This document shows, piece after piece, positions 10,525-64,000 of a DNA stretch of 64,000 nt (positions within the stretch are counted from its first letter, which is position 1; every line of letters starts with the position of its first letter). The notes under the pieces are model-generated. The model was not told where the DNA came from, ran no database searches, and saw only the letters and a list, made by a program, of their open reading frames with translations. The translations under genes were made by a program, and so were the position numbers. The stretch is from Bacteroidales bacterium (GTDB lineage: Bacteria; Bacteroidota; Bacteroidia; Bacteroidales; UBA3663): NCBI GenBank assembly GCA_045617885.1, contig JAZLJN010000059.1, positions 5,042-69,041 of the forward strand, in the 5' to 3' direction.

Positions 10525-10554
10525 AATTTTCTTTTTGTGGGTTATTTCGTTGTT

Positions 10555-10694
10555 TCGATTTTTCGAAGACTCGAATTTTCGAGCATTCGAAGTATCGATT
10601 TATCGAGTCATCGAGATTTCGAGCCATCGAGATTTCGAACCATCGAGTCTTCGACTTTTCGAGATTTCGATTTTTCGAGTAATCGTTCTATCGG
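10555..10694. repeat. 8-bp phased TCGA array (16 perfect units plus degenerate flanking units) in the susD-to-SGBP junction of PUL-1
   Basis: TCGA occurs at 10555, 10563, 10571 and so on to 10675 with no phase slip. TCGT lies at 10547 and 10683, and TCGG at 10691. Confidence 0.95.
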
Positions 10695-10727
10695 TTTTTG
10701 ATGCCCCGATCACTCGATCTCTCCGAT

Positions 10728-12368
10728 TTATTCATACAGTCCGTTGGCGTTATTGACCTCCTCGTAAGGAACTGGCCAGAAGATCTCGTCCTGGCTCATC
10801 TGTGCATCGCCATAGTAGCTTTCGAACTGCTGCTCACTCTTGAAGTAGGCATTCATTGTCTCTACGACACTGCCCCAGCGTACGAGGTCAAACCAACGCT
10901 GGCCCTCCATAGCCAATTCCAGACGGCGTTCCATGCGGACTGCCTTACGGGCATAATCCTGATTTGGGAAGCTTTGATAAAGACCTACCTTATAGTCAGC
11001 ATACATCTCATTAATATCCACAGGGCTGTAAGTATTAGCTTGTGCCAAGGTGCGCTGAGCCTTCTGTCGGACCTCATTAATCTCACGCATAGCAGTATTG
11101 AGGTTGCTATTCTGCTCAATGAGCGCCTCTGCATGAAGCAGGAGTATGTCTGCGTAACGGATGAAGATAAAGTTGAGCGGAGCATGATATGGATAGGTGT
11201 GGAGGCAGCGAGGATCTGCTGGATCAACACACCACTTCTTGCCAGAATAGCCGCTATAGACATCTGCTGCACGTACCCAGCTCTCAGTGTAAGTAAGACC
11301 GCGCCAAGGCATACCGATACGGCCCACAGTGCAGTCCAGACGAGGATCCACATTGCCAAAGTAATCACCTATGACGTGATCTGCTGGTGCGTTGTCAAGG
11401 TAAGGCAAGCCATTAGCGTCAGTGCGGAAGGCATCGACCAGATTCTGTGAAGCATGGAAGAAATCATCGCCTGATCCATACTGGTTACCCTCGCTATAGG
11501 TTACGTTGAGCAGATTGCTCCAACAGATATGCATATTATCGTTGGCAGAAGAGGTCTGCAGAGCAAGGATTGACTCATGGGTATTGTTGAAGTCGATCTT
11601 TGACATATCAAGATAATTGTCATAGAGCGAGTACTGACCGCACTTGATTACCAGATCAGCCCATTTCTCAACCTCGTTCCAACGGCTCTGGAAAGCATTG
11701 ACGCGAGCCAGCATAGCTGCAGCCACATACTTATTGACACGTCCTGGCTGGCTTTGAGTCTCTGGAAGCACGCTATATGCCTGCTCTAAATCTGCCACAA
11801 TGCTGGTGAAAATCTCTTCGCGGCTCATATTGTCATAACGGATGCTGCTAGGATTCTCTGCTGTCTCATCATAATATGGGAAACGCTCAAAGAGATGATA
11901 GAGATCGAAATAGAACCATGCACGCAGGAACTTCAACTCACCGATCAGCGCAGGACGCTGATTCTCTGGGAGGAAAGAATTAATGGCATTGATGGCCTGG
12001 TGTACGCGGGTGATGGCCCAATAGTTGTTCTTCCACTTAAAGAGCAGCGACGCATTATCGCTGGTTATGTTTGAGATTTCCAGCTGGTGAAGATTACCCT
12101 CCATTGAGATGCCACCGCCACCTTTAAGTGCATCGTCAGAACGCACATCAATGATCCAGTTGGTCATTGGGCCGGCAAAGGCCTCATTATTGCCGATGAA
12201 GTGACTCTCCAGTCCAGCGTAGGCAGAAGCAATGAAGGCATCCACATCGTTCTCTGTAAGCTGTCCGGCAGAGAACTGACCATAAGGCTCCTGATCGAGC
12301 AAGTCGTCGCAGCTGGTCATGCTCATTGTGGCTGCAAGAGCGAGAGCACTGAATATATATTTTTTCAT
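10728..12368 (-). CDS. SusD/RagB family nutrient-binding outer-membrane lipoprotein (fructan PUL-1)
   Basis: Lipoprotein signal MKKYIFSALALAATMSMTSCDD. SusD-like TPR body and C-terminal WPVPYEEVNNANGLYE. It lies directly downstream of a SusC-like gene. Confidence 0.9.
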   Translation of the reverse strand: MKKYIFSALALAATMSMTSCDDLLDQEPYGQFSAGQLTENDVDAFIASAYAGLESHFIGNNEAFAGPMTNWIIDVRSDDALKGGGGISMEGNLHQLEISNITSDNASLLFKWKNNYWAITRVHQAINAINSFLPENQRPALIGELKFLRAWFYFDLYHLFERFPYYDETAENPSSIRYDNMSREEIFTSIVADLEQAYSVLPETQSQPGRVNKYVAAAMLARVNAFQSRWNEVEKWADLVIKCGQYSLYDNYLDMSKIDFNNTHESILALQTSSANDNMHICWSNLLNVTYSEGNQYGSGDDFFHASQNLVDAFRTDANGLPYLDNAPADHVIGDYFGNVDPRLDCTVGRIGMPWRGLTYTESWVRAADVYSGYSGKKWCVDPADPRCLHTYPYHAPLNFIFIRYADILLLHAEALIEQNSNLNTAMREINEVRQKAQRTLAQANTYSPVDINEMYADYKVGLYQSFPNQDYARKAVRMERRLELAMEGQRWFDLVRWGSVVETMNAYFKSEQQFESYYGDAQMSQDEIFWPVPYEEVNNANGLYE

Positions 12369-12380
12369 GTTTGGAAAGTT

Positions 12381-12480
12381 TCGAATTAAAAAATACGATT
12401 GATCGAAAAATCGATTGATCGAGAAATCGAATAATCGAATGAATTGAAGGATCGAATGAATTGAAAAATCGGTTTTTCGA
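12381..12480. repeat. TCGA-core array with an 8-bp (occasionally 9-bp) period in the susC-to-susD junction of PUL-1
   Basis: TCGA or one-off variants occur at 12381, 12395 (ACGA), 12403, 12411, 12419, 12427, 12435, 12444 (TTGA), 12452, 12461 (TTGA), 12469 (TCGG) and 12477. Confidence 0.85.
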
Positions 12481-12487
12481 TTTCTTT

Positions 12488-18611: not shown

Positions 18612-18752
18612 ACTGCTTATTTTGATTCCTGAAAAATAATATTTGTTGCACCGGATAGAAAAAATGTTGTAAATTCTGTTTCCTCTTCATCCTAATATAT
18701 AGAGTTGCTCATTTGATAAAACTTTATTTTTCAATAGTTTGCAAAAAAGTTC

Positions 18753-18792
18753 GTTCCCACCGCCCATTTGTTATAGGTGGGAACGTTTTTTT
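18753..18792 (+). terminator. Intrinsic terminator after the regulator gene
   Basis: GTTCCCACC (18753-18761) pairs with GGTGGGAAC (18776-18784), followed by GTTTTTTT. Confidence 0.7.
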
Positions 18793-18796
18793 GTTG

Positions 18797-18804
18797 TACC
18801 TTTG
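18797..18804 (+). promoter_or_regulatory. -7 box (TACCTTTG) for the PUL-2 susC operon
   Basis: TACCTTTGCAGCGC lies 79 nt upstream of the ATG at 18883 and directly after the terminator. Confidence 0.5.
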
Positions 18805-18882
18805 CAGCGCTTATTTGGAGACTATATTGACAAAAACAAAGAAAGCAACAAATATTATTTACACAATTTAAAAACACAAGAC

Positions 18883-21800
18883 ATGAAACGATTCCTATTG
18901 ATTGCTGCCATGATGATCTGCACTACGGTGCTGGCACTGGCACAAGTGAAGGTTCATGGCACCGTGATGGACAAGGGGCTCGGTGAGCCAGTCCTTGGTG
19001 CTACGGTCCTCGAGGTAGGCACCACGAACGGTACTGTTACCGACTTCGATGGTAACTTCGAACTGACCGTCAAGGAGGGCGCAACCCTCCAGTTCAGTTA
19101 CATCGGTTACACCACCGTACAGCTTCCTGCTGCAGCTGAGATGAACATCGAACTCAGTGAGGATGCTGAGATGATGGAAGAAGTAGTCGTTACCGGTTAT
19201 ACCACTCAGCGTAAGGCTGACTTGACAGGTTCGGTAGCAGTTATTTCTACCAAAGACATGAAGACCAACTCGAACCCAGACCCAATGAAGTCTCTGCAGG
19301 GTAAGGTTGCTGGTATGACCGTGACCACTAATGGTTCGCCTGCTGGTACTGCTACAATCCGTATTCGTGGTATTGGTTCTATTAACTCTAACCAGGATCC
19401 TCTCTACGTTATTGACGGTGTACCTACTACCTCTGGTTTGAATACACTTAATGCTGCTGACATTGAGTCAATGCAGGTATTGAAGGATGCCGCTTCGGCT
19501 TCTATCTATGGTAGCCGTGCTGCCAACGGTGTCATCATCATCACCACAAAGAGTGGTAAGAAGGGTGACGGCAAGGTAAAGGTTGACTTCAACGCTTCAA
19601 TGACTGCCAACTTCTACAACAGCCAGTCGAAGATGAAGCTGATGGATTCACACGAATATGCTACCGCTATGGCTCAGGCTGCTCTGAATGATGGCATGGA
19701 CCCAGTGACTTATGCTCTCAACTACGGACTCAACCTCAATGCCAGCAATGGTTTCGGCATTCAGGCTTACGACATTGCAAGCGGTGAGTACAAGAACTAT
19801 ACCGTGGCTGGTGCTTATGGCAATGGCGAATTCATCAACAACAGCCAGAAGATGCGTCTCAGCAATACCGACTGGCTCGATGAGATCAGCCGCGTAGGTG
19901 TGACCCAGAACTATGACCTCTCACTCAGCAATGGTTCGGAGAAGGGCTCGCAGATGCTCAGCCTCGGTTACAAGAAGGCTGAAGGTGTCCTGAAGTACAC
20001 CGACTTTGAGAACATCTCTATCCGTCTGAACTCTACATATAATATTAATAAGGTAGTGAACGTGGGTGAGAACTTCACCCTTACCTATAGCGACCAGGTT
20101 GATTGCGCTCCTCTTGAGAATGCACTCAAGATGCCTGCTATCATCCCTGTCTATGAGATTGATGGTACTACCTTTGGTGGTCCTGTAGGTTCTATGCGCG
20201 ACCGTCAGAACCCAATGCGCGAACTTGCCTACAACAAGGACAACCGATTGAAGATGTGGCGTATCTTCGGTAACGGCTACATCAACATCAAGCCTTTCAA
20301 GGGCCTTGACCTCCGTTCGAACTTCGGTATTGACTACAATGCCAACTTCATCCACCACATGACCTACACCTTCATCTCTGATAACGTTTCAGAGAAGACT
20401 CCAAAGACCAGTGTAGATCAGACCAACGACCTGAAATGGACCTGGTCAAATACCGCTAACTACCTCGTACCACTTCCAGAAAACCATACACTCACCGCAC
20501 TGGCTGGTTTCGAGCTTTTCAAGCAGGACTTCGTCAACATCAACGGTTCGGCAGAAGGCTTCGCCATTGAGAACGAACTCTACATGTGGCCAAATGCTGC
20601 TACAGGTTCTATGCGCCTCAATGGTGCTAACGTAGGTTACTCGCTCGTGTCATTCTTCGGCAAACTTGACTACAACTGGCAGGATCTGCTCCTCGCATCG
20701 TTCACCATCCGTCGTGACGGTTCAAGCCGCTTCGGTAAAAACAACCGCTATGGTACCTTCCCAGCTGCTTCACTTGGTTACCGTGTATCAAAGCACATGG
20801 ACTATGATTGGCTCACCGACTTGAAGCTCCGCGCATCTTGGGGTCAGACCGGTAACCAGGCTATTGATAACTCTGCCCGCTATACCATCTTCATCGCTGA
20901 CTATGGTACAAGTCGTCAGGATGGTACTGCATACGACTTCAAGGGTGAGGGCGGCGGCCAGTTCAACAGCGGTTATCGCGTACAGAGCACCGGTAATGAC
21001 AACCTCAAGTGGGAGACTGCCGAGCAGTGGAATGCCGGTCTTGACTTCGCATTCTTCAATAATACACTCTTCGGCACCTTCGATGCCTATATCAAGGACG
21101 TAAAGGATATGCTTATCAATCCAGCTTACCTTGGTTCAGTAGGTGAGGGTGGTGCTTCATGGCTCAACGGTCCATCTCTCCGTAACTGGGGTATGGAGCT
21201 CACCGTAGGTTATCGTGGAAAGACTTCGTTCGGCATGGGCTATAGCGTAAACGGCAATGTTGACTTCTTCCGTAACCGTGTAACCTGGTTACCAGAGACT
21301 ACTACCGGTTCTTACGCTCACACTACCAAGCAGAACCTCGTAGAGGCTAAGGTTCCTTACGGTTCAAGCGTAGGTTATGTTGCTGACGGTCTCTTCACCA
21401 GCCGAGAGGAGGTACTTGCTTCTGGTCAGGAGAACGCTCGTCTGGGCGGTATCAAGTATGCTGACCTTGACGGCAACGGCATCATCAACAGCGAGGACCA
21501 GACCTGGATCTTCAACCCAGTACCAGATTTCTCTTACGGTCTCACCGTCAACCTTGATTACAAGGGCTTCGACTTCCAGATGTTCTGGCAGGGTGTAGCT
21601 GGCGTAGATGTATATAATGGTCAGAAGTTCCAGACCGACTTCTATGGTCTGGTGGACGTGAACTCAAGCAAGGGTAGCCGTTTGCTCAATGGCTGGCTCC
21701 CAGGCGTAAACGAGAAGAGCTCTATCCCAATGCTCTCTACCATGAACAACTCTGACGAAGGCCGTGCTTCAACCTATTTCGTAGAGAATGGTTCATACCT

Positions 21801-22005
21801 CAAACTCCGTACGCTCCAGGTGGGCTACACCGTTCCTGAGTCTCTGCTTCAGAAGGCACACATCGCCAATGCCCGCTTCTACCTGAGCGGCAATAACCTC
21901 GCTACCATCAAGAGCAGCAGCCTGACCTGCACTGATCCTGAAAACCCAGGCTTTGCTTATCCTATCTCTACTTCAGTAAGCTTCGGCCTCCAGATCGGCT
22001 TCTAA
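18883..22005 (+). CDS. SusC/RagA family TonB-dependent transporter (fructan PUL-2), a paralogue of 12488-15502
   Basis: Start MKRFLLIAAMMICTTVLALAQ. The ORF-track 5' extension spans the promoter and terminator. The N-terminal ~120 aa are close to the PUL-1 SusC (GATVLEVGTTNGTVTDFDGNFELTV). Plug and barrel motifs are present. Confidence 0.95.
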   Translation: MKRFLLIAAMMICTTVLALAQVKVHGTVMDKGLGEPVLGATVLEVGTTNGTVTDFDGNFELTVKEGATLQFSYIGYTTVQLPAAAEMNIELSEDAEMMEEVVVTGYTTQRKADLTGSVAVISTKDMKTNSNPDPMKSLQGKVAGMTVTTNGSPAGTATIRIRGIGSINSNQDPLYVIDGVPTTSGLNTLNAADIESMQVLKDAASASIYGSRAANGVIIITTKSGKKGDGKVKVDFNASMTANFYNSQSKMKLMDSHEYATAMAQAALNDGMDPVTYALNYGLNLNASNGFGIQAYDIASGEYKNYTVAGAYGNGEFINNSQKMRLSNTDWLDEISRVGVTQNYDLSLSNGSEKGSQMLSLGYKKAEGVLKYTDFENISIRLNSTYNINKVVNVGENFTLTYSDQVDCAPLENALKMPAIIPVYEIDGTTFGGPVGSMRDRQNPMRELAYNKDNRLKMWRIFGNGYINIKPFKGLDLRSNFGIDYNANFIHHMTYTFISDNVSEKTPKTSVDQTNDLKWTWSNTANYLVPLPENHTLTALAGFELFKQDFVNINGSAEGFAIENELYMWPNAATGSMRLNGANVGYSLVSFFGKLDYNWQDLLLASFTIRRDGSSRFGKNNRYGTFPAASLGYRVSKHMDYDWLTDLKLRASWGQTGNQAIDNSARYTIFIADYGTSRQDGTAYDFKGEGGGQFNSGYRVQSTGNDNLKWETAEQWNAGLDFAFFNNTLFGTFDAYIKDVKDMLINPAYLGSVGEGGASWLNGPSLRNWGMELTVGYRGKTSFGMGYSVNGNVDFFRNRVTWLPETTTGSYAHTTKQNLVEAKVPYGSSVGYVADGLFTSREEVLASGQENARLGGIKYADLDGNGIINSEDQTWIFNPVPDFSYGLTVNLDYKGFDFQMFWQGVAGVDVYNGQKFQTDFYGLVDVNSSKGSRLLNGWLPGVNEKSSIPMLSTMNNSDEGRASTYFVENGSYLKLRTLQVGYTVPESLLQKAHIANARFYLSGNNLATIKSSSLTCTDPENPGFAYPISTSVSFGLQIGF

Positions 22006-22008
22006 TTC

Positions 22009-22096
22009 TCGAAGTAAATATATTAACTCGAAAAACTCGAAATATCGAAAATTCGAAATCTTGTTGATTCGAAATATCGACAATTCGATAACTCGT
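22009..22096. repeat. 8-bp phased TCGA array in the susC-to-susD junction of PUL-2
   Basis: TCGA occurs at 22009, 22028, 22037, 22045, 22053, 22069, 22077 and 22085, with TCGT at 22093. From 22037 onwards the 8-bp phase is exact, with 22061 a degenerate TTGT unit. The array starts 4 nt after the susC stop codon. Confidence 0.9.
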
Positions 22097-22113
22097 AAAT
22101 AGAAATTATCATT

Positions 22114-23895
22114 ATGAAACAATATATTTTTGGAGCCCTCGCACTTGCTGCCTCAATGAGCATGACCAGCTGCGACGATTTCCTTGAGGTAAAGCCTTCA
22201 GGTATCGTTGATGAGGAGCTCGCATTCAGTGAGCCAGATGCTATGGTGACTGCCGCTTATGCAGCCCTCGGCGCTGACTGGTACACCTATCCATTCAATC
22301 TCTGGCCTTACGGCTCACTTGCTAGTGACGATGCCCTCAAGGGCGGTGGTGATACTGGCGATACTGAGTATCACGCCGTAGAGATCTGGAGTTCTCTCTC
22401 TTCTACCAATCCTGGTGGCCACATGGATGAGCTCTGGTATCATCTCTATGTATCTATCTCTCGTTGCAACCGTGCCATCATGGCTGTCCGTGATCAGGGC
22501 GAAGAGAAGCTTGGTGCAGAGACTGCTGCTATCCGTATGGGCGAAGCTCGTTTCCTCCGCGGTCACTTCTACTACAAGCTGATTCAGCTCTTCAACCAGG
22601 TTCCTTACATTGATGAGATTTGCCTGCAGAACGCTGCCCAGGAGCAGACCCGCAACGATGAGTTCACACATGATCAGCTTATGGAGAAGGTTATCGCTGA
22701 CTTCGAGGCTGCATACAATGCTCTGCCAGCCCGTCAGAACGATAAGGCTCGTGTCAACAAGGCTGCAGCAGCCGCTATGCTTGCCAAGTGCTACCTCAAC
22801 AAGGCTTACGGCAATGGCTATGAGGCAAGCACCGGTTATGCTCATGTAAATTCTGCTGACATGCAGAAGGTAGTGGAATATACAGACTATGTAATCTCTA
22901 CCGGCAACTACCGCTACGAGCAGGACTTCGGAGATCTCTTCATGCTCGACAACAAGAATGGCTGCGAGTCAATCTTCGCTGTTCAGCACTCAAACTATGA
23001 GGATGACAACACCAAGTTAGGCCGTTCAAACTGGAGCAACATGCTCAACGGCTGTCACGGCATGTGGTCAAAGGGCTGGGACTTCCACAAGCCATCACAG
23101 AACCTTGTCAACGCATTCAAGGTTGACGAGAATGGTCTGCCAATGTTTGATGACTATGAGAAGGTTCACAATATCTATCCTATCAATGGCGTAGAGCAGG
23201 ATCAGAAGTGGGATCCACGTCTGTTCCATACCGTAGGTATTCCTACTTTCCCTTACAAGTATGAGACCGGTGCTTCTGAAGATGGTATCGTCAAGAGCCT
23301 CATCATGACTGCCACTGCCGACAATGCTCGCTGCCCATCTTCATACGGCTACTATGCTTCTCTGAAGGAGGTTCCTCAGCGTTCAAAGGGCGAGAGCTAC
23401 ACCGAGGGTACCTGGCAGGGCTTTGCCATGAACGACTACGTAGTTCGCTACACAGAGATGATGCTCTGGCGTGCTGAGGCACTCATTGAGCTTGGCAAGG
23501 TAGGCGATGGCATCGAGATCATCAACGCCATCCGTCAGCGTGCCAACAACTCTGTAGCCAAGTACATCGGCTATGCTTCTAACCAGATCCGTACCCTGGG
23601 TATGTACTCAACAGGTGCAAGCAAGGATGAGGCTCGTAAGTATCTCCGCTGGGAGAAGCGCCTCGAGATGGCTATGGAGTCAGAGCGTTTCTTCGACCTC
23701 CGTCGCTGGGGTCTCGCTTCTGAGACCATGAATGCTTACTTCCAGGCAGAGCAGAACTCTAACTATGAGGGCATGGATTACGCTGGTTACCTCGCTTCGG
23801 CTCACTTCCAGGCAGGCAAGAACGAGTTCTGGCCAATCCCTTACCAGCAGCTCTTCTACGTGCCAGGATTGTACGTGCAGAATGCAGGATATTAA
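22114..23895 (+). CDS. SusD/RagB family lipoprotein (fructan PUL-2)
   Basis: MKQYIFGALALAASMSMTSCDD is nearly identical to the PUL-1 SusD signal. SusD-like body. C-terminal FWPIPYQQLFYVPGLYVQNAGY. Confidence 0.9.
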   Translation: MKQYIFGALALAASMSMTSCDDFLEVKPSGIVDEELAFSEPDAMVTAAYAALGADWYTYPFNLWPYGSLASDDALKGGGDTGDTEYHAVEIWSSLSSTNPGGHMDELWYHLYVSISRCNRAIMAVRDQGEEKLGAETAAIRMGEARFLRGHFYYKLIQLFNQVPYIDEICLQNAAQEQTRNDEFTHDQLMEKVIADFEAAYNALPARQNDKARVNKAAAAAMLAKCYLNKAYGNGYEASTGYAHVNSADMQKVVEYTDYVISTGNYRYEQDFGDLFMLDNKNGCESIFAVQHSNYEDDNTKLGRSNWSNMLNGCHGMWSKGWDFHKPSQNLVNAFKVDENGLPMFDDYEKVHNIYPINGVEQDQKWDPRLFHTVGIPTFPYKYETGASEDGIVKSLIMTATADNARCPSSYGYYASLKEVPQRSKGESYTEGTWQGFAMNDYVVRYTEMMLWRAEALIELGKVGDGIEIINAIRQRANNSVAKYIGYASNQIRTLGMYSTGASKDEARKYLRWEKRLEMAMESERFFDLRRWGLASETMNAYFQAEQNSNYEGMDYAGYLASAHFQAGKNEFWPIPYQQLFYVPGLYVQNAGY

Positions 23896-23934
23896 AAAAG
23901 TTAAAAAGTTAAAGAGTTAAAAAGTTAAAGAGTT
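23895..23934. repeat. 8-bp tandem repeat AAARAGTT x5 starting at the susD stop codon
   Basis: The units are aaaaagtt, aaaaagtt, aaagagtt, aaaaagtt and aaagagtt in exact phase. Confidence 0.9.
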
Positions 23935-23959
23935 CCCTGCTGCGAAATAAGGAACTCTT
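23928..23959 (+). other. Stem-loop overlapping the last repeat unit (intra-operon hairpin)
   Basis: aagagttcc (23928-23936) pairs with ggaactctt (23951-23959), with a 14-nt loop. Confidence 0.5.
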
Positions 23960-23993
23960 AACTTACACTTAACTCATTATAAAATTAAGAAAA

Positions 23994-25502
23994 ATGAAAA
24001 TCCAATATATTTTTGCAGCATTGGCAGCAGCTTCAATCATGAGTGCCTGCAATGCTGACATGGACATCGACATTGCTGCTCCTGTTCTTACCGCTCCTGA
24101 TGAGAGCACTATCCAGGGCAGTCTCCAGGGTGATGACTATGTTCTCACTTGGAGTGGTAATGGCTCAAAGATGCAGGTGACCCGTTATGCCAATGGTAAT
24201 AAGGCCGGTTCAGAGATCGTTGAGGGTAATAGCTATACTCATCGCGATGTAGAGACTAACGTTCCTTATATGTATATCCTCAAGCTCACTGATGGATTAA
24301 ACTTCTCAAAGGGTGTCATCAAGGAGTTCCTTCGCCAAGGTGCAAGCAAGTGCTCAGGCCTCTCTATGTCTCAGCTTGAGAAGGCTGGTGGCTATGATGC
24401 ACAAGTCACTTGGAATGCCAATCCTTCTGCAGCAGCAGTAAAGCTGATTGCAAACAATGGCGGCGCTCGTGAGATCAAGGAGACTCTGTCTGCAAGTGTG
24501 ACCTCTTACATCATTCCTGATGTTAAGGAGGGCGAGACCTGGAATGTAACCCTCATTGCCGAGAACGAAAAGGGCACCTCTCTGCCAGCAGCTACCTCTC
24601 TCCGTATCGGCAAACTCGCTGTAGCTTACCTCAGCCTCTATGATACTCCTGAGGAGCTCCTCGCTAATGGCGATGATGATGAGGCATACGGCTGGGTTTG
24701 GTTCCATGCCAACTATCCTACCGGCACCTTCGTTCCATTCAGCAGCATTACCTCTGCTGATGTGCTTGAGCCATATCGTGTTGCCTTCTTCATGCGCGAC
24801 ATTGATGATCCTGGCACCGTAGGCTATGATGCCTGGAACTATCCTGAGGTTGTCAATAATGCTACTCCATTCGTAGCAGAGTGGTACAAGAATGGCGGTA
24901 GCCTTCTCCTCTGGAGCCACGCTACCACTTACGTTGGTCATCTGGGCCGTCTTGACCTTGATATGATGAAGAAGAATGACCATGCTATCGGCTACGGCTG
25001 CGGCAATAACCCAGATACCTGGAAGATGGCTGTTCAGCTTGCACCTGCAGGCGGTCGCTTCATCAAGGATCATTCTACCCACCCAATCTTCCGTGGCCTT
25101 GACGTTGAGCCAGCAGGCAACACCAAACTCATCGCTGTGAAGAGCGGTTCGGCATTCACTGAGGATCACAACTGTCTCTTCTTCAACCTGCCTTCTGTCC
25201 TCACCGGCATTGGCAATCAGGAGGAGACCTGCTATCAGGCTGCTACCAAGACCTACGGCCTCTATCCTCTCGGCACCTGGGACAGCCAGATCGATTGGGT
25301 AAGCCAGCTCAACGTATGGGAGGCTCAGCAGGGCAATACTGAGTTCCAGGGAACCATCATCTGCGTAGGCAACGGTGGATGTAACTTCTACCTGCGTACC
25401 CAGGAGGACTTCGACGTACAGACCCAGCCTTCAGGCAATGCATTCCAGGCCAATATTGAAACTATGGCAAAGAATGCCATTGAGTACCTTAAGACTCGCT
25501 AA
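23994..25502 (+). CDS. Surface lipoprotein, putative SGBP of PUL-2, with a single copy of the domain that is duplicated in 8521-10524
   Basis: Lipoprotein signal MKIQYIFAALAAASIMSAC and FN3/Ig-like N-terminal modules (YVLTWSGNGSKMQVTRY). The C-terminal domain is homologous by eye to the PUL-1 SGBP: GGSLLLWSHATTYVGHLGR, THPIFRGL, EDHNCLFFN, NAFQANIETMAKNAIEYLK. Confidence 0.7.
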   Translation: MKIQYIFAALAAASIMSACNADMDIDIAAPVLTAPDESTIQGSLQGDDYVLTWSGNGSKMQVTRYANGNKAGSEIVEGNSYTHRDVETNVPYMYILKLTDGLNFSKGVIKEFLRQGASKCSGLSMSQLEKAGGYDAQVTWNANPSAAAVKLIANNGGAREIKETLSASVTSYIIPDVKEGETWNVTLIAENEKGTSLPAATSLRIGKLAVAYLSLYDTPEELLANGDDDEAYGWVWFHANYPTGTFVPFSSITSADVLEPYRVAFFMRDIDDPGTVGYDAWNYPEVVNNATPFVAEWYKNGGSLLLWSHATTYVGHLGRLDLDMMKKNDHAIGYGCGNNPDTWKMAVQLAPAGGRFIKDHSTHPIFRGLDVEPAGNTKLIAVKSGSAFTEDHNCLFFNLPSVLTGIGNQEETCYQAATKTYGLYPLGTWDSQIDWVSQLNVWEAQQGNTEFQGTIICVGNGGCNFYLRTQEDFDVQTQPSGNAFQANIETMAKNAIEYLKTR

Positions 25503-29055: not shown

Positions 29056-29260
29056 TTCATGGCATGGATTTCACAACTTTTAAATGGGCGCCACACACCC
29101 TTGGCAGCCATTTATGAACTGTGAAATGGGCGCCAGCACCCTTGGCCGCCATTTATGAACCGTGAAATGGACGCCAGCACTCTTGGCTGCCATTTATGAA
29201 CTGTGAAATGAGCCCCAGCACTTCTTGGCACGGATTTGCAGATGTGGAAATAGATGCCTT
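29056..29260. repeat. Tandem array (about 5 units, 41-42 bp period) of hairpin units AAATGGGCGCCAgcacccTTGGCCGCCATTTatgaactgtg
   Basis: Unit starts (AAATG) are at 29082, 29124, 29165, 29206 and 29248. Each unit has an imperfect inverted repeat. It shares the word ATTTCACAACTnnnAAATGGrCGCCA with the repeat at 5828-6010. Confidence 0.85.
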
Positions 29261-55674: not shown

Positions 55675-55716
55675 TGATAATTGACAATTAATAATTGATA
55701 ATTGACAATTAATCCA
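55675..55716. repeat. 7-bp phased repeat (TGATAAT, TGACAAT, TAATAAT; a 21-mer x2) in the susC-to-susD junction
   Basis: The units are tgataat, tgacaat, taataat, tgataat, tgacaat and taatcca. Confidence 0.85.
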
Positions 55717-55726
55717 GAATAAAAAT

Positions 55727-62212: not shown

Positions 62213-64000
62213 ATGAAAAATATTAAGAAATATTTTGGGCTGACCTTAATTGCACTTCTCTTCTCAGTTGTATTATCAGCTTGTGAAGATAAGGACGAAA
62301 TCGGTTCTGATAACCTCGGCATGGCTATTAAGGTCTTTTCACCAACTAAAGTTGTCCCTGGCCAGCCTGTTACCATCAACGGTTCTGGATTCGGAGAGGT
62401 TACTGAGGTTGTATTCCCTGGCGGCATCGCTGTCAGCAACTTCGAGTTGGTAAGCAATGAGATGATTCGTGTAGTCACACCTGCAGGCATCAATATCTCT
62501 GATGAGGGAGAGAAACTCTTGGTTCGTTCAGCAAGTGACCAGGCAGAGTCTCCTCGCGTGATGACACAGGGACATACACAGGTTCGTGCCTACTCGGCCG
62601 AGCCAGGTGAGGATGTTAAGACCAAGTCTATCCTTAAGATCTTCGGTCAGGACATGGAGTTTGTCAGCAAGGCTACCTTCGTCGGCTCTGACGATAACGA
62701 GATTGTGCTCGAGGCAAAGGACTTCTACCGCATCGCTACTGGTAGTGTAGCCATCAAGGTTCCTGCTGATGTGAAGGAGGGTGTGAACCCTGCTTCTATC
62801 GAGACCCTCGATGGTCTGAAGTTCGATCTGCCAGACTTCAATTATGTAGCTGCTGCAGCTGGCGGTCACTGGGAGACAGTTAAGAAATATCTCTGGAAGA
62901 ACGAGACAGGCGATCCTATCCCAGGCTGGGGTAGTACATTCCGTTTCTCGAATGTTGAGACTGCTACAGGTGAGGAAATCTATGCATTCCCAATGGAAGA
63001 CTGGGCTGTAATTAAGGATGGCACCTTCCGTGTTGCTCTTGATGTCAACGATGCCTCAAACATCCGTATCACCACTGGTTGGTGGACTGGCGCATACGGC
63101 GGTAACGAGCACAACTCAATCGACTTTGTACAGGAGGATGAGGATGGCACCAAGTTCATTGAGCTCAACTTCAAGGAGGAGGGTAGTCTCTATGATAACC
63201 TCGATCAGCAGCACATGCTCTTCACCGGTTCTGACTATACCTTGCTGGCTATCTACACACAAGAGGATGTCTGGGTTGAGGAGGCCGAAGGTCACTGGGA
63301 GCGCAAGTCTCTCTGGAAGAACGATGCTGGCGAAGCCGTTCCTGCTTGGGGTGGTAAGTTCCGTTTCTCAAATGTTGAGACTTCATCAGGTGAGGAGATC
63401 TATGCTTTCCCAATGGAAGACTGGGCTATCATCAAGGATGGCGTTGTTAAGGTAGCCGTTGATGTCAATGATGCTTCAAACATCCGCATTACCACTGGCT
63501 GGTGGACGGGCGCATACGGTGGCGATGAGCACAACTGTATCGACTTCGTGCAGGAGGGTGCTGATGGCACCAAGTTCATCGAGCTCAACATTAAGGAAGA
63601 GGGCACCCTCTATGATAATCTTGATGCCCAGCACTTGCTCTTCACCGGTTCTGACTACACCGTGCTCGAGATCTACCTCGACGTGTGGGTAGAAGAGGCC
63701 GGCGGTGCCAAGCCTGTTGTATTGTGGGAAAATGTCGAAGGCGAAGCTGTCCCAAGCTGGGGTGGCAAGTTCCGTTTCTCGAATGTTGAGACTTCATCAG
63801 GTGAAGAGATCTATGCCTTCCCAATGGAAGACTGGGCTATCATCAAGGATGGCAAGTTCCGCGTTGCCCTCGATGTGAATGAATCTTCGAACATCCGCAT
63901 CACCACTGGCTGGTGGACCGGTGCATACGGTGGCGATGAGCATAACTGTATCGACATGGTAGAGGAGGATGCCGATGGCACCAAGTTCATCGAGGTTAAC
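62213..64000 (+). CDS. Surface lipoprotein (putative SGBP) with two IPT/TIG-like domains followed by at least three tandem domains of about 140 aa from an unrecognised family; the 3' end lies outside the window
   Basis: This gene is absent from the ORF track because there is no stop codon before the window end. Start MKNIKKYFGLTLIALLFSVVLSACEDKD. IPT-like KVFSPTKVVPGQPVTINGSGFGEVTEVVF. Each repeated module contains WGGKFRFSNVETSSGEEIYAFPMEDWAIIKDG...NIRITTGWWTGAYGG..., then DGTKFIEL and LLFTGSDYT. Confidence 0.85.
   Translation, partial: MKNIKKYFGLTLIALLFSVVLSACEDKDEIGSDNLGMAIKVFSPTKVVPGQPVTINGSGFGEVTEVVFPGGIAVSNFELVSNEMIRVVTPAGINISDEGEKLLVRSASDQAESPRVMTQGHTQVRAYSAEPGEDVKTKSILKIFGQDMEFVSKATFVGSDDNEIVLEAKDFYRIATGSVAIKVPADVKEGVNPASIETLDGLKFDLPDFNYVAAAAGGHWETVKKYLWKNETGDPIPGWGSTFRFSNVETATGEEIYAFPMEDWAVIKDGTFRVALDVNDASNIRITTGWWTGAYGGNEHNSIDFVQEDEDGTKFIELNFKEEGSLYDNLDQQHMLFTGSDYTLLAIYTQEDVWVEEAEGHWERKSLWKNDAGEAVPAWGGKFRFSNVETSSGEEIYAFPMEDWAIIKDGVVKVAVDVNDASNIRITTGWWTGAYGGDEHNCIDFVQEGADGTKFIELNIKEEGTLYDNLDAQHLLFTGSDYTVLEIYLDVWVEEAGGAKPVVLWENVEGEAVPSWGGKFRFSNVETSSGEEIYAFPMEDWAIIKDGKFRVALDVNESSNIRITTGWWTGAYGGDEHNCIDMVEEDADGTKFIEVN
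62864..64000. repeat. Intragenic tandem repeat with a period of 414-426 bp (at least 2.7 copies, truncated by the window end)
   Basis: ggtcactggga occurs at 62864 and 63290, and gaggcc anchors occur at 63281 and 63695. Copies 2 and 3 are more similar to each other than to copy 1. Confidence 0.9.

Follow-up and report, generated by a model that had tools for sequence, protein, structure and literature searches.

The spacer between the susC and susD genes of a fructan polysaccharide utilization locus (PUL-2) in a Bacteroidales bacterium carries an array in which the tetranucleotide TCGA recurs every 8 nt. A preliminary description of this DNA noticed the same periodicity in the neighbouring fructan locus PUL-1 and suggested that the element is maintained, or repeatedly generated, at the susC/susD boundaries of fructan loci. 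The question is whether the array belongs to these loci at all. We analysed a 64,000-nt stretch of contig JAZLJN010000059.1 (assembly GCA_045617885.1), called the window below, together with the whole assembly (3.23 Mb, 152 contigs; genome G000 in our numbering) and genomes of relatives. We read the PUL-2 array as an "orphan", without a gene of its own, of a family of phased 8-nt tandem arrays that recur throughout the genome in spacers between co-directional genes of any function. In our estimate there is a slightly better than even chance for the explanation as a whole, which includes orphan membership of the family, a lineage-specific reader of TCGA and a tolerated spacer at the fructan locus.

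The array at the PUL-2 junction and its family

The junction consists of the following features.
18739..22005 (coding to 22002), plus strand: PUL-2 SusC-type TonB-dependent receptor, upstream cistron (Pfam Plug, TonB_dep_Rec_b-barrel, CarbopepD_reg_2)
22006..22113, plus strand: untranslated susC-susD spacer of 108 nt, with TCGA-core units at 22026-22100; the last ~14 nt before the ATG are a plain A/T-rich leader
22009..22012, plus strand: isolated out-of-phase TCGA, 4 nt past the stop and outside the phased chain (read from the sequence)
22026..22043, plus strand: perfect tandem duplication, AACTCGAAA x2 at 22026-22034 and 22035-22043 (sequence; Tandem Repeats Finder (TRF) period 9, 3.1 copies, 22025-22051)
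22037..22100, plus strand: two 32-nt higher-order copies of four units each (sequence; TRF period 16, 3.6 copies, 22032-22088)
22114..23895 (coding to 23892), plus strand: PUL-2 SusD, downstream cistron, ATG at 22114 (Pfam SusD_RagB, SusD-like_3)

A base-by-base reading agreed with the preliminary description in every position. TCGA stands at 22009, 22028, 22037, 22045, 22053, 22069, 22077 and 22085, and TCGT at 22093; the array begins 4 nt past the susC stop (TAA at 22003-22005, first TCGA at 22009); and the 8-nt phase is exact from 22037, with a degenerate unit, TTGT, in the in-phase slot at 22061. The copies at 22009 and 22028 are out of phase. The step from 22028 to 22037 is 9 nt because AACTCGAAA is perfectly duplicated, and this duplication at 22026-22043 probably marks a trace of recent slippage. 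The first 32-nt copy (22037-22068) consists of the units TCGAAATA TCGAAAAT TCGAAATC TTGTTGAT, the fourth with the core TTGT, and the second (22069-22100) of TCGAAATA TCGACAAT TCGATAAC TCGTAAAT, the fourth with the core TCGT; the two copies agree at about 22 of 32 positions by hand count. TTGT (22061) and TCGT (22093) thus fill the same slot of the two copies, and both cores also alternate in arrays of relatives (the nusB-yajC junction of G022, locus L103). Such variants are the change that would be expected from C-to-T transitions at the core CpG.

TRF reported periods 8, 9 and 16 over 22025-22107 with 64-84% matches, and Rfam 15 at the gathering score gave no match in the whole window. The pattern TCGAN4TCGAN4TCGA, with at most one mismatch, was found 23 times in the window, always inside the three arrays named by the preliminary description. 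The expected number was 0.08 according to 100 dinucleotide shuffles, none of which reached 23. Therefore, the array is not a product of chance.

In the whole genome, the distances between TCGA copies peak at 8, 16, 24, 32 and 40 nt, with 188 pairs at 8 nt versus about 20 at neighbouring distances. We defined arrays as chains of at least three in-phase TCGA with up to two missing units allowed. It turned out that there are 21 such arrays at 20 places, all of them intergenic, and that open reading frames (ORFs) on the same strand flank 19 of the 20 places, versus 60-66% expected. Seventeen places are outside fructan loci, between functionally unrelated genes, among them nusB-yajC, trpG-trpD, thiE-thiG, ppk-ppx-PHO4, GH31-DUF3237, GDSL-GH31 and three esterase-esterase junctions, as well as a hybrid two-component regulator and an esterase, MFS-POT, GH115 and a mannitol-dehydrogenase-like gene, and an aminotransferase and an HAD hydrolase. 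Other families with units of 7-10 nt also fill spacers (146 intergenic arrays of at least 3.5 copies). On the sense strand, a TCGA array is often followed by a run of four to six C before the next start codon (G000 C1, C4, C8, C22, C31, C82, C98, C131 and C142); this C-run is absent from the arrays of the window.

These 17 places are, in substance, what the preliminary description had itself named as evidence against specificity, i.e., the same arrays in intergenic regions outside polysaccharide utilization loci. The susC/susD junctions lead to the same answer. Among the 16 resolvable SusC/SusD junctions of the genome, two have TCGA arrays, three have AATTGAY heptamers, one has an A/T fold-back and ten are shorter than 30 nt, so that 14 lack a TCGA array, ten of them merely being short. 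No TCGA array was found at the orthologous PUL-2 junction in any of 80 Prevotellaceae orthologues. At this junction, G005 and G007, both rich in TCGA arrays, carry CTAGAA 9-mers; G022 and L001 carry GTTAAT/AACAAAAC arrays; the spacer is short and plain in L004 and contains a GC hairpin in L005; and 75 more distant Prevotellaceae have either various purine-rich 7-9-mers or no array. In the closest relative, the PUL-1-like junction is without an array. Thus, the array is neither restricted to susC/susD junctions nor conserved at the orthologous ones, and the idea that it is maintained there does not hold. Of the idea that it is repeatedly generated, one part stands: TRF detected an array in at least 22 of 79 orthologous junctions and in none of 79 coding controls, and junctions of this type are hotspots where short tandem arrays form from any family that the genome has, but this is specific neither to TCGA nor to fructan.

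A cis element specific to fructan loci could be argued for from the fact that both GH32 loci have the array at the same junction and that they are the only two of the 16 to have it. However, these two loci are neighbours, and TCGA arrays cluster at other loci too (7 pairs at most 15 kb apart versus 1.24 expected, p about 0.001). Three arrays fall within about 12 kb at two neighbouring loci because TCGA arrays cluster locally, and not because of fructan biology. With most arrays in unrelated operons and other arrays or none at the orthologous fructan junctions of congeners, we consider such an element largely refuted and give it next to no chance. At the fructan locus the array would be a tolerated transcribed spacer, which at most modulates the susC:susD expression ratio.

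We then oriented 222 units of this genome by their flanking genes. The unit reads HHTCGAWW in the mRNA sense. The core is TCGA in 97% of the units, a figure partly built into the array definition, and the entropy at positions 1, 2, 7 and 8 is close to the maximum for A/C/T or A/T. G makes up 3% and C 28% at positions 1-2, while C makes up 2% and G 7% at positions 7-8; in other co-directional spacers G is 16%. In all 19 arrays of at least six units, C at positions 1-2 exceeds G at positions 7-8. The arrays consist of short head-to-tail units beyond chance, and near-identity over the whole unit was not found. Spacer identity between neighbouring units is 0.46 at lag 1 and 0.50 at lag 2 versus a baseline of 0.44, i.e., nearly random, whereas whole-unit identity is enriched 4-5-fold: 15 identical neighbours at lag 1 and 16 at lag 2 versus 3.5 and 3.0 expected. 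This argues for growth by local duplication followed by loss of all but the core. Judging from these sequences, the arrays appear to gain and lose units through local tandem duplication, in steps of 8, 16 or 32 nt (one, two or four units).

In-phase TCGA similarity drops to background within 2-3 units past the array ends. No block of three or more consecutive units is shared between any two array places, and the arrays have therefore not been copied recently from place to place. On these grounds, and since no gene remnants were found beside orphan arrays, we rejected copy-and-paste or transposition between places. Neither exact-protein look-ups of SusD and YajC nor scanning of metagenomes with the 3' end of susC gave a second strain of the species.

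Within the genus, the five-core pattern occurs 92 times in this genome, 74 times in G005 and 43 times in G007; four species have 3-9 matches and 17 have none. The nusB-yajC junction holds 13 TCGA units in this genome, three TCGTAA units in G007, six TYGTAATT units in G022 and TTWGTAAT units in G004; that of G005 has no array. In sister species, arrays of other families have apparently taken their place at the same junctions. Two junctions that have other cores in relatives (CTAG at one, TCGT/TTGT at the other) both have TCGA here, and this convergence points to a trans-acting cause.

The three arrays of the window do not stand alone in it. On the plus strand, PUL-2 has the order DUF6377 regulator, SusC, SusD, DUF4960, GH32 according to Pfam, and PUL-1, on the minus strand, has SusC, SusD, DUF4960, LamG-GH32, the same order from SusC to GH32. 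As had been said, the two loci are on opposite strands and their coding sequences have diverged much; the SusD paralogues are 34% identical. The other short-unit arrays of the two loci are as follows.
12369..12487, minus strand: PUL-1 susC/susD spacer array of the same TCGA family, units WTCGATY in the mRNA sense (pattern search, unit alignment)
10525..10727, minus strand: PUL-1 susD/DUF4960 spacer array of the same TCGA family, 16 exact in-phase TCGA and decayed in-phase units at its 5' end (pattern search)
23895..23959, plus strand: a different 8-nt family in the next PUL-2 spacer, (AAARAGTT)x5 folded back on AACTCTTAACTT (TRF)

The consensus YTCGAAA, read by eye in two of the three TCGA arrays, fits the PUL-2 array and the long PUL-1 array. 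The last of the features listed shows that several array families coexist within one operon, that of PUL-2. A different family, of AATTGAY/TGATAAT heptamers, is found at 55675-55722 of the window, at the susC/susD junction of a third polysaccharide utilization locus, and also in G000:C45 and G000:C151. Arrays with a 41-42-nt unit stand at 48608-48845 and 29075-29230 of the window and at about 70 places genome-wide. Within the array at 48608-48845 are GC-rich palindromes of the form CCCACACC..GTAC..GGTGTGGG, which resemble repetitive extragenic palindromic (REP) sequences and bacterial interspersed mosaic elements (BIME). The 41-42-nt arrays are a second repeat class in the same spacers, unrelated to the TCGA arrays. 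A 420-nt unit is repeated 2.7 times with 80% identity at 62888-63994, within an ORF that starts at 62213, and is probably a repeated protein domain.

The gene that accompanies the arrays

One array place of this genome (G000:C8) adjoins a gene for a 247-aa protein (G000:C8:40269-41009), with TCGA arrays 75-270 nt upstream of the gene. The protein matches, in part weakly, PF05635/TIGR02436 (23S_rRNA_IVP, the four-helix bundle of 23S intervening sequence (IVS) proteins and Avd), 4helix_suffix and Zn_ribbon_Top1 in Pfam and NCBIfam. Its AlphaFold model has a mean predicted local distance difference test (pLDDT) of 85.7, and the best fold matches are 2GSC and 2RLD, of the IVS/"S23" family. In the fold search, the C-terminus resembles the GRF zinc finger of NEIL3, which binds single-stranded DNA. 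Pfam, NCBIfam and the fold search found no recognisable catalytic domain and no Y1 transposase in the protein, and PADLOC gave no defence-family match for the partner proteins.

Close orthologues are present in four of the 25 genomes of the genus. All four are array-positive, and each orthologue is at most 160 nt from a TCGA chain. In G005, likewise, the gene is beside a TCGA array and the same repeat is dispersed in the genome. The protein family comprises over 1000 members (E up to 1e-5). Among the best 120 matches listed, those with 78-86% identity are in metagenome-assembled genomes (MAGs) labelled Bacteroidales, Bacteroidaceae and Paludibacteraceae, and one with 68% is in a "Fibrobacter" MAG. 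A TCGA-core array was found beside the gene in all eight orthologues of at least 54% identity (on both sides in L193 and L195), including those from other metagenomes and MAGs at 82, 78, 68, 66 and 54%. The neighbours of the orthologues differ each time: ACPS/GH35, dapF, hsdM/hsdS twice, hsdR/hsdM, and SNF/S26 peptidase. Therefore, the gene behaves as an inserted cassette. Three of these insertions (L159, L152 of G014, and L195/L196) are in type I restriction-modification operons, hsdM/hsdS twice and hsdR/hsdM once. In L152 (G014:C38:104738-105072), the match is limited to residues 1-81 and 211-247, and a TCGA array is 31 nt upstream; this suggests an internal deletion in a putatively decaying cassette. 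L195 and L196, from two samples, encode an identical protein next to their arrays, and the arrays differ.

More distant relatives have other repeats beside them. A 47% orthologue is bracketed by HCGARAT 8-mers, and a 50% relative (G041) has TGWCAA 8-mers, a 51% relative a ~20-nt unit and a 34% paralogue ten CTAG 9-mers; no TCGA arrays were found in the genome of G041. Taken together, these loci link the TCGA array family to a four-helix-bundle/zinc-ribbon gene that is apparently mobile. Something in the lineage would read TCGA at the 8-nt spacing and so keep the cores intact. The best candidate for this reader would be the four-helix-bundle/zinc-ribbon protein, which would either bind single-stranded DNA or RNA, with one protomer on each unit, or promote local slippage.

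Several observations weigh against this explanation. The share of the array definition in the 97% core figure has been mentioned above. The sense-strand rule, by which C is allowed and G is avoided 5' of the core, applies in just 6 of 10 clear cases in G005 and G007, where the gene strands were checked with Pfam. At least four arrays there have the opposite polarity (at AAA_28-prfC, upstream of purE, downstream of greA, and at an AraC gene followed by a four-helix-bundle/zinc-ribbon gene), and no single strand-specific reading is therefore general; a universal sense-strand motif, strict in this genome, was rejected. G007 has 43 pattern matches, and no orthologue of the gene was found in this MAG, which is 86% complete. 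Conversely, G041 has the 50% relative with its gene-adjacent array, and orphan arrays with the same unit were not found there. Therefore, dispersal neither clearly requires the gene nor clearly follows from its presence. Finally, no remnants of the 247-aa gene were found near the orphan arrays of this genome.

The pairing of genes of this fold with repeats is not limited to the 247-aa protein. From 14 genomes of the genus we took 26 small PF05635 genes, of 117-159 aa, with 400 random genes as the control. The flanks were inverted complements of each other in 77% of the small genes versus 1% of the random ones, and inverted or direct in 88% versus 3%. These genes are set in operon spacers (loci L163-L192), and the array downstream of a gene is usually the reverse complement of that upstream of it. 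Every gene has a unit of its own, 6-10 nt long, and related proteins have related units, such as the AGTGAAAG group and the GGTTAAGAG group. Two of them are in this genome, outside the window.
G000:C87:10800-11156 (cassette 10763-11216): small PF05635 gene between fabZ/lpxC and lpxA, with flanks (AAGGTAAA)n / (TTTACCTC)n
G000:C125:23575-23928 (cassette 23539-23996): small PF05635 gene between (AATGAAA)n and (TTTCATT)n

This survey of gene-repeat pairing covers the genus and the orthologues of the 247-aa protein. We tentatively suggest a generalization, which we regard as possible rather than probable. Short tandem arrays in operon spacers of Bacteroidales would be more than plain simple-sequence DNA: they would belong, as dispersed members without a gene, to repeat families with master copies on either side of mobile 23S-IVS/Avd four-helix-bundle genes, and each protein clade would recognise its own 7-10-nt unit and help to maintain or spread it. 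The pairs would be TCGA 8-mers with the 247-aa zinc-ribbon clade, CTAG 9-mers with its paralogue, and AGTGAAAG, GGTTAAGAG and other units with the small members. Such a partnership would be similar to that of REP sequences and REP-associated tyrosine transposases (RAYT), with tandem repeats and a non-transposase protein in their place.

Competing explanations

It is possible that the arrays have no reader and are neutral simple-sequence DNA. In this case they would be slippage products that operon spacers tolerate. TCGA-N4-TCGA mini-hairpins would stabilise slipped intermediates, so that preferably units with an intact core are recopied, and mutational drive, not selection, would preserve them. 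Much of the above is in agreement with this: local duplications are enriched, the array margins fade to background within a few units, turnover at orthologous junctions is complete, the genome has 146 arrays of other families, and phased palindromic cores fold back unaided (z about -4 for long arrays against dinucleotide shuffles). Nevertheless, we consider it unlikely. The spacers are nearly randomised and the cores are intact, whereas recopying of whole units by such a drive should make the spacers uniform as well. That two junctions with other cores in sister species both came to have TCGA here is not predicted by slippage at each locus separately. In addition, one gene clade is accompanied by the same core in different families.

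The arrays could also act in the polycistronic mRNA as a platform on the sense strand, either as a Rho loading site similar to Rho utilization (rut) sites or as a pad for a binder of single-stranded RNA such as S1, which would set polarity or translation downstream. The fit is weak, and we judge this improbable. Rut sites have more C than G, are unstructured, are 60-90 nt long and contain YC dinucleotides read by six clefts (PMC5314796, PMC9499579). The arrays of this genome resemble them in that they are G-poor and richer in C than in G on the mRNA strand (all 19 are of the C-type, with G at positions 1-2 far below its share in other spacers), are 50-190 nt long, contain regularly spaced UC dinucleotides, one per unit, and belong to the untranslated part of operons; the C-run often follows. 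However, successive UC are 6 nt apart, below the spacing of at least 7 nt between YC dinucleotides for E. coli Rho (PMC5314796). The cores are self-complementary and pair with each other, and such RNA is therefore not unstructured. Thus, rut sites are matched in C excess and length and not in UC spacing and pairing. The polarity is also not conserved in congeners, being opposite in at least four Pfam-verified operons of G005 and G007, and sister families, the CTAG 9-mers and the C-free AAAGTTAA arrays, have no YC sites.

A third role, at the RNA level, is a REP-like fold-back, in which a ladder of UCGA:UCGA helices serves as a barrier to 3'-exonucleases or as an RNase III site and uncouples the stability of the susC and susD segments. 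Long arrays indeed fold far better than their dinucleotide shuffles (z -4.05, -4.28 and -3.94), and most small four-helix-bundle genes of the genus stand between inverted arrays, which is the geometry of rRNA intervening sequences excised at a stem. However, the PUL-2 junction array itself folds no better than its shuffles (z -0.29). When the phase was preserved in the null model by unit permutation or column shuffles, no array stood out in stability from phased TCGA arrays in general (mean z about -0.2). Since z vanishes in this way, there is no extra selection for pairing, and the ladder is intrinsic to phased palindromes; selected hairpins were rejected for the same reason. The predicted ladder folds of long arrays are 4-bp helices broken by internal loops, and such helices are poor RNase III substrates. 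We regard this role as very improbable.

At the DNA level, a site cluster for a TCGA-specific restriction-modification system or an orphan methylase would suit the palindromic 4-bp core, which is also a feature of the sister CTAG family, the variable polarity of arrays relative to transcription in relatives and the repeated location of the cognate gene in type I operons, but it is scarcely tenable, given that TCGA is not avoided in the genome (observed/expected 0.93), that RE_TaqI was found neither in this genome nor in 40 relatives (41 genomes), that G000 and G005, the most array-rich genomes, lack the TaqI_C methylase domain, which three array-free congeners possess, and that the 8-bp spacing sets successive sites on different faces of a helix with a repeat of about 10.5 bp. 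A TaqI-type system was rejected accordingly. In the whole genome, CTAG is strongly under-represented (observed/expected 0.14), GGCC is moderately so (0.38), and TCGA and TTAA (0.95) are not.

Comparison with known repeats and proteins

Similar short repeats are known from cyanobacteria, where they are the short tandemly repeated repetitive (STRR) heptamers. The arrays are also close to two described kinds of repeat: long simple sequence repeats with units of 5-11 nt (Mrazek et al. 2007, summarised in PMC4679880) and the TAACTGA heptamers that form intergenic direct repeats in Beggiatoaceae, cyanobacteria and some Bacteroidetes (PMC4679880). Like these, the TCGA arrays consist of short head-to-tail units, are strictly intergenic and often just upstream of start codons, spread sporadically in particular lineages, evolve by slippage and have no assigned function. 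They differ in period (8 versus 7 in the TAACTGA heptamers) and in what is kept. The known repeats are near-perfect copies of the whole unit, whereas here just the 4-nt palindromic core is kept in phase and the other four letters are near random. The TCGA arrays are also accompanied by a cognate protein-coding gene; no such gene is mentioned in PMC4679880 or in PMC4692102.

This accompaniment is a property of REP/BIME sequences and RAYT in E. coli and Pseudomonas. There, species-specific repeats are dispersed in transcribed operon spacers, a single-copy RAYT gene is flanked by its own repeat type, and gene clade and repeat co-vary. REP repeats are palindromes of 20-40 nt, and RAYT is a Y1 transposase similar to that of IS200/IS605. 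The TCGA system shares these features: the repeat family is species-specific and dispersed in spacers inside operons, the single-copy gene is flanked by a repeat type dispersed in the genome (G000:C8 and about 19 other places, and G005 too), and the repeat sequence co-varies with the gene clade (TCGA in 8 of 8 at 54% identity or more, other cores in more distant relatives). It differs in that the partner is a four-helix-bundle/zinc-ribbon protein and not a Y1 transposase, and in that the repeats are tandem 8-mers, with no multi-unit blocks common to two places and no sign of copy-and-paste.

The protein itself leads to another comparison. In 23S rRNA intervening sequences the ORF sits in the loop of a stem. 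Similarly, the small members in the genus sit in a loop between inverted flanks. The partner protein shares its fold family (PF05635/TIGR02436; 2GSC, 2RLD) with the protein encoded by these intervening sequences, to which Avd, the accessory protein of diversity-generating retroelements, is related (PMC10053308). Unlike the intervening sequences, the cassettes are in spacers of protein-coding operons and not in rRNA, their stems are short tandem repeats, and the PUL-2 junction array carries no gene. Unlike the retroelements with Avd, the cassette loci examined have no reverse transcriptase within ±1.5 kb. Our literature search of titles and abstracts found no paper that ties the PF05635/TIGR02436 IVS family to tandem repeats. 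The array itself belongs to a known kind of repeat, the dispersed short tandem repeats, and the possible partnership of repeat and gene would be undescribed.

For fructan loci, the result is deflationary: annotators should not read regulation into the array. Arrays of this kind probably also break short-read assemblies and shift gene-start calls. Apart from this, a 4-nt palindromic core kept in exact 8-nt phase at about 20 unrelated spacers, with drift in between, implies a reader not yet named. The IVS family is widespread and structurally solved, and apart from diversity-generating retroelements no role is known for it. If the partnership is real, it would give these long-unexplained proteins a function. 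If the pairing is functional, both the role of the protein and the reason why Bacteroidales spacers are built of phased short repeats would be testable in tractable Prevotella/Segatella.

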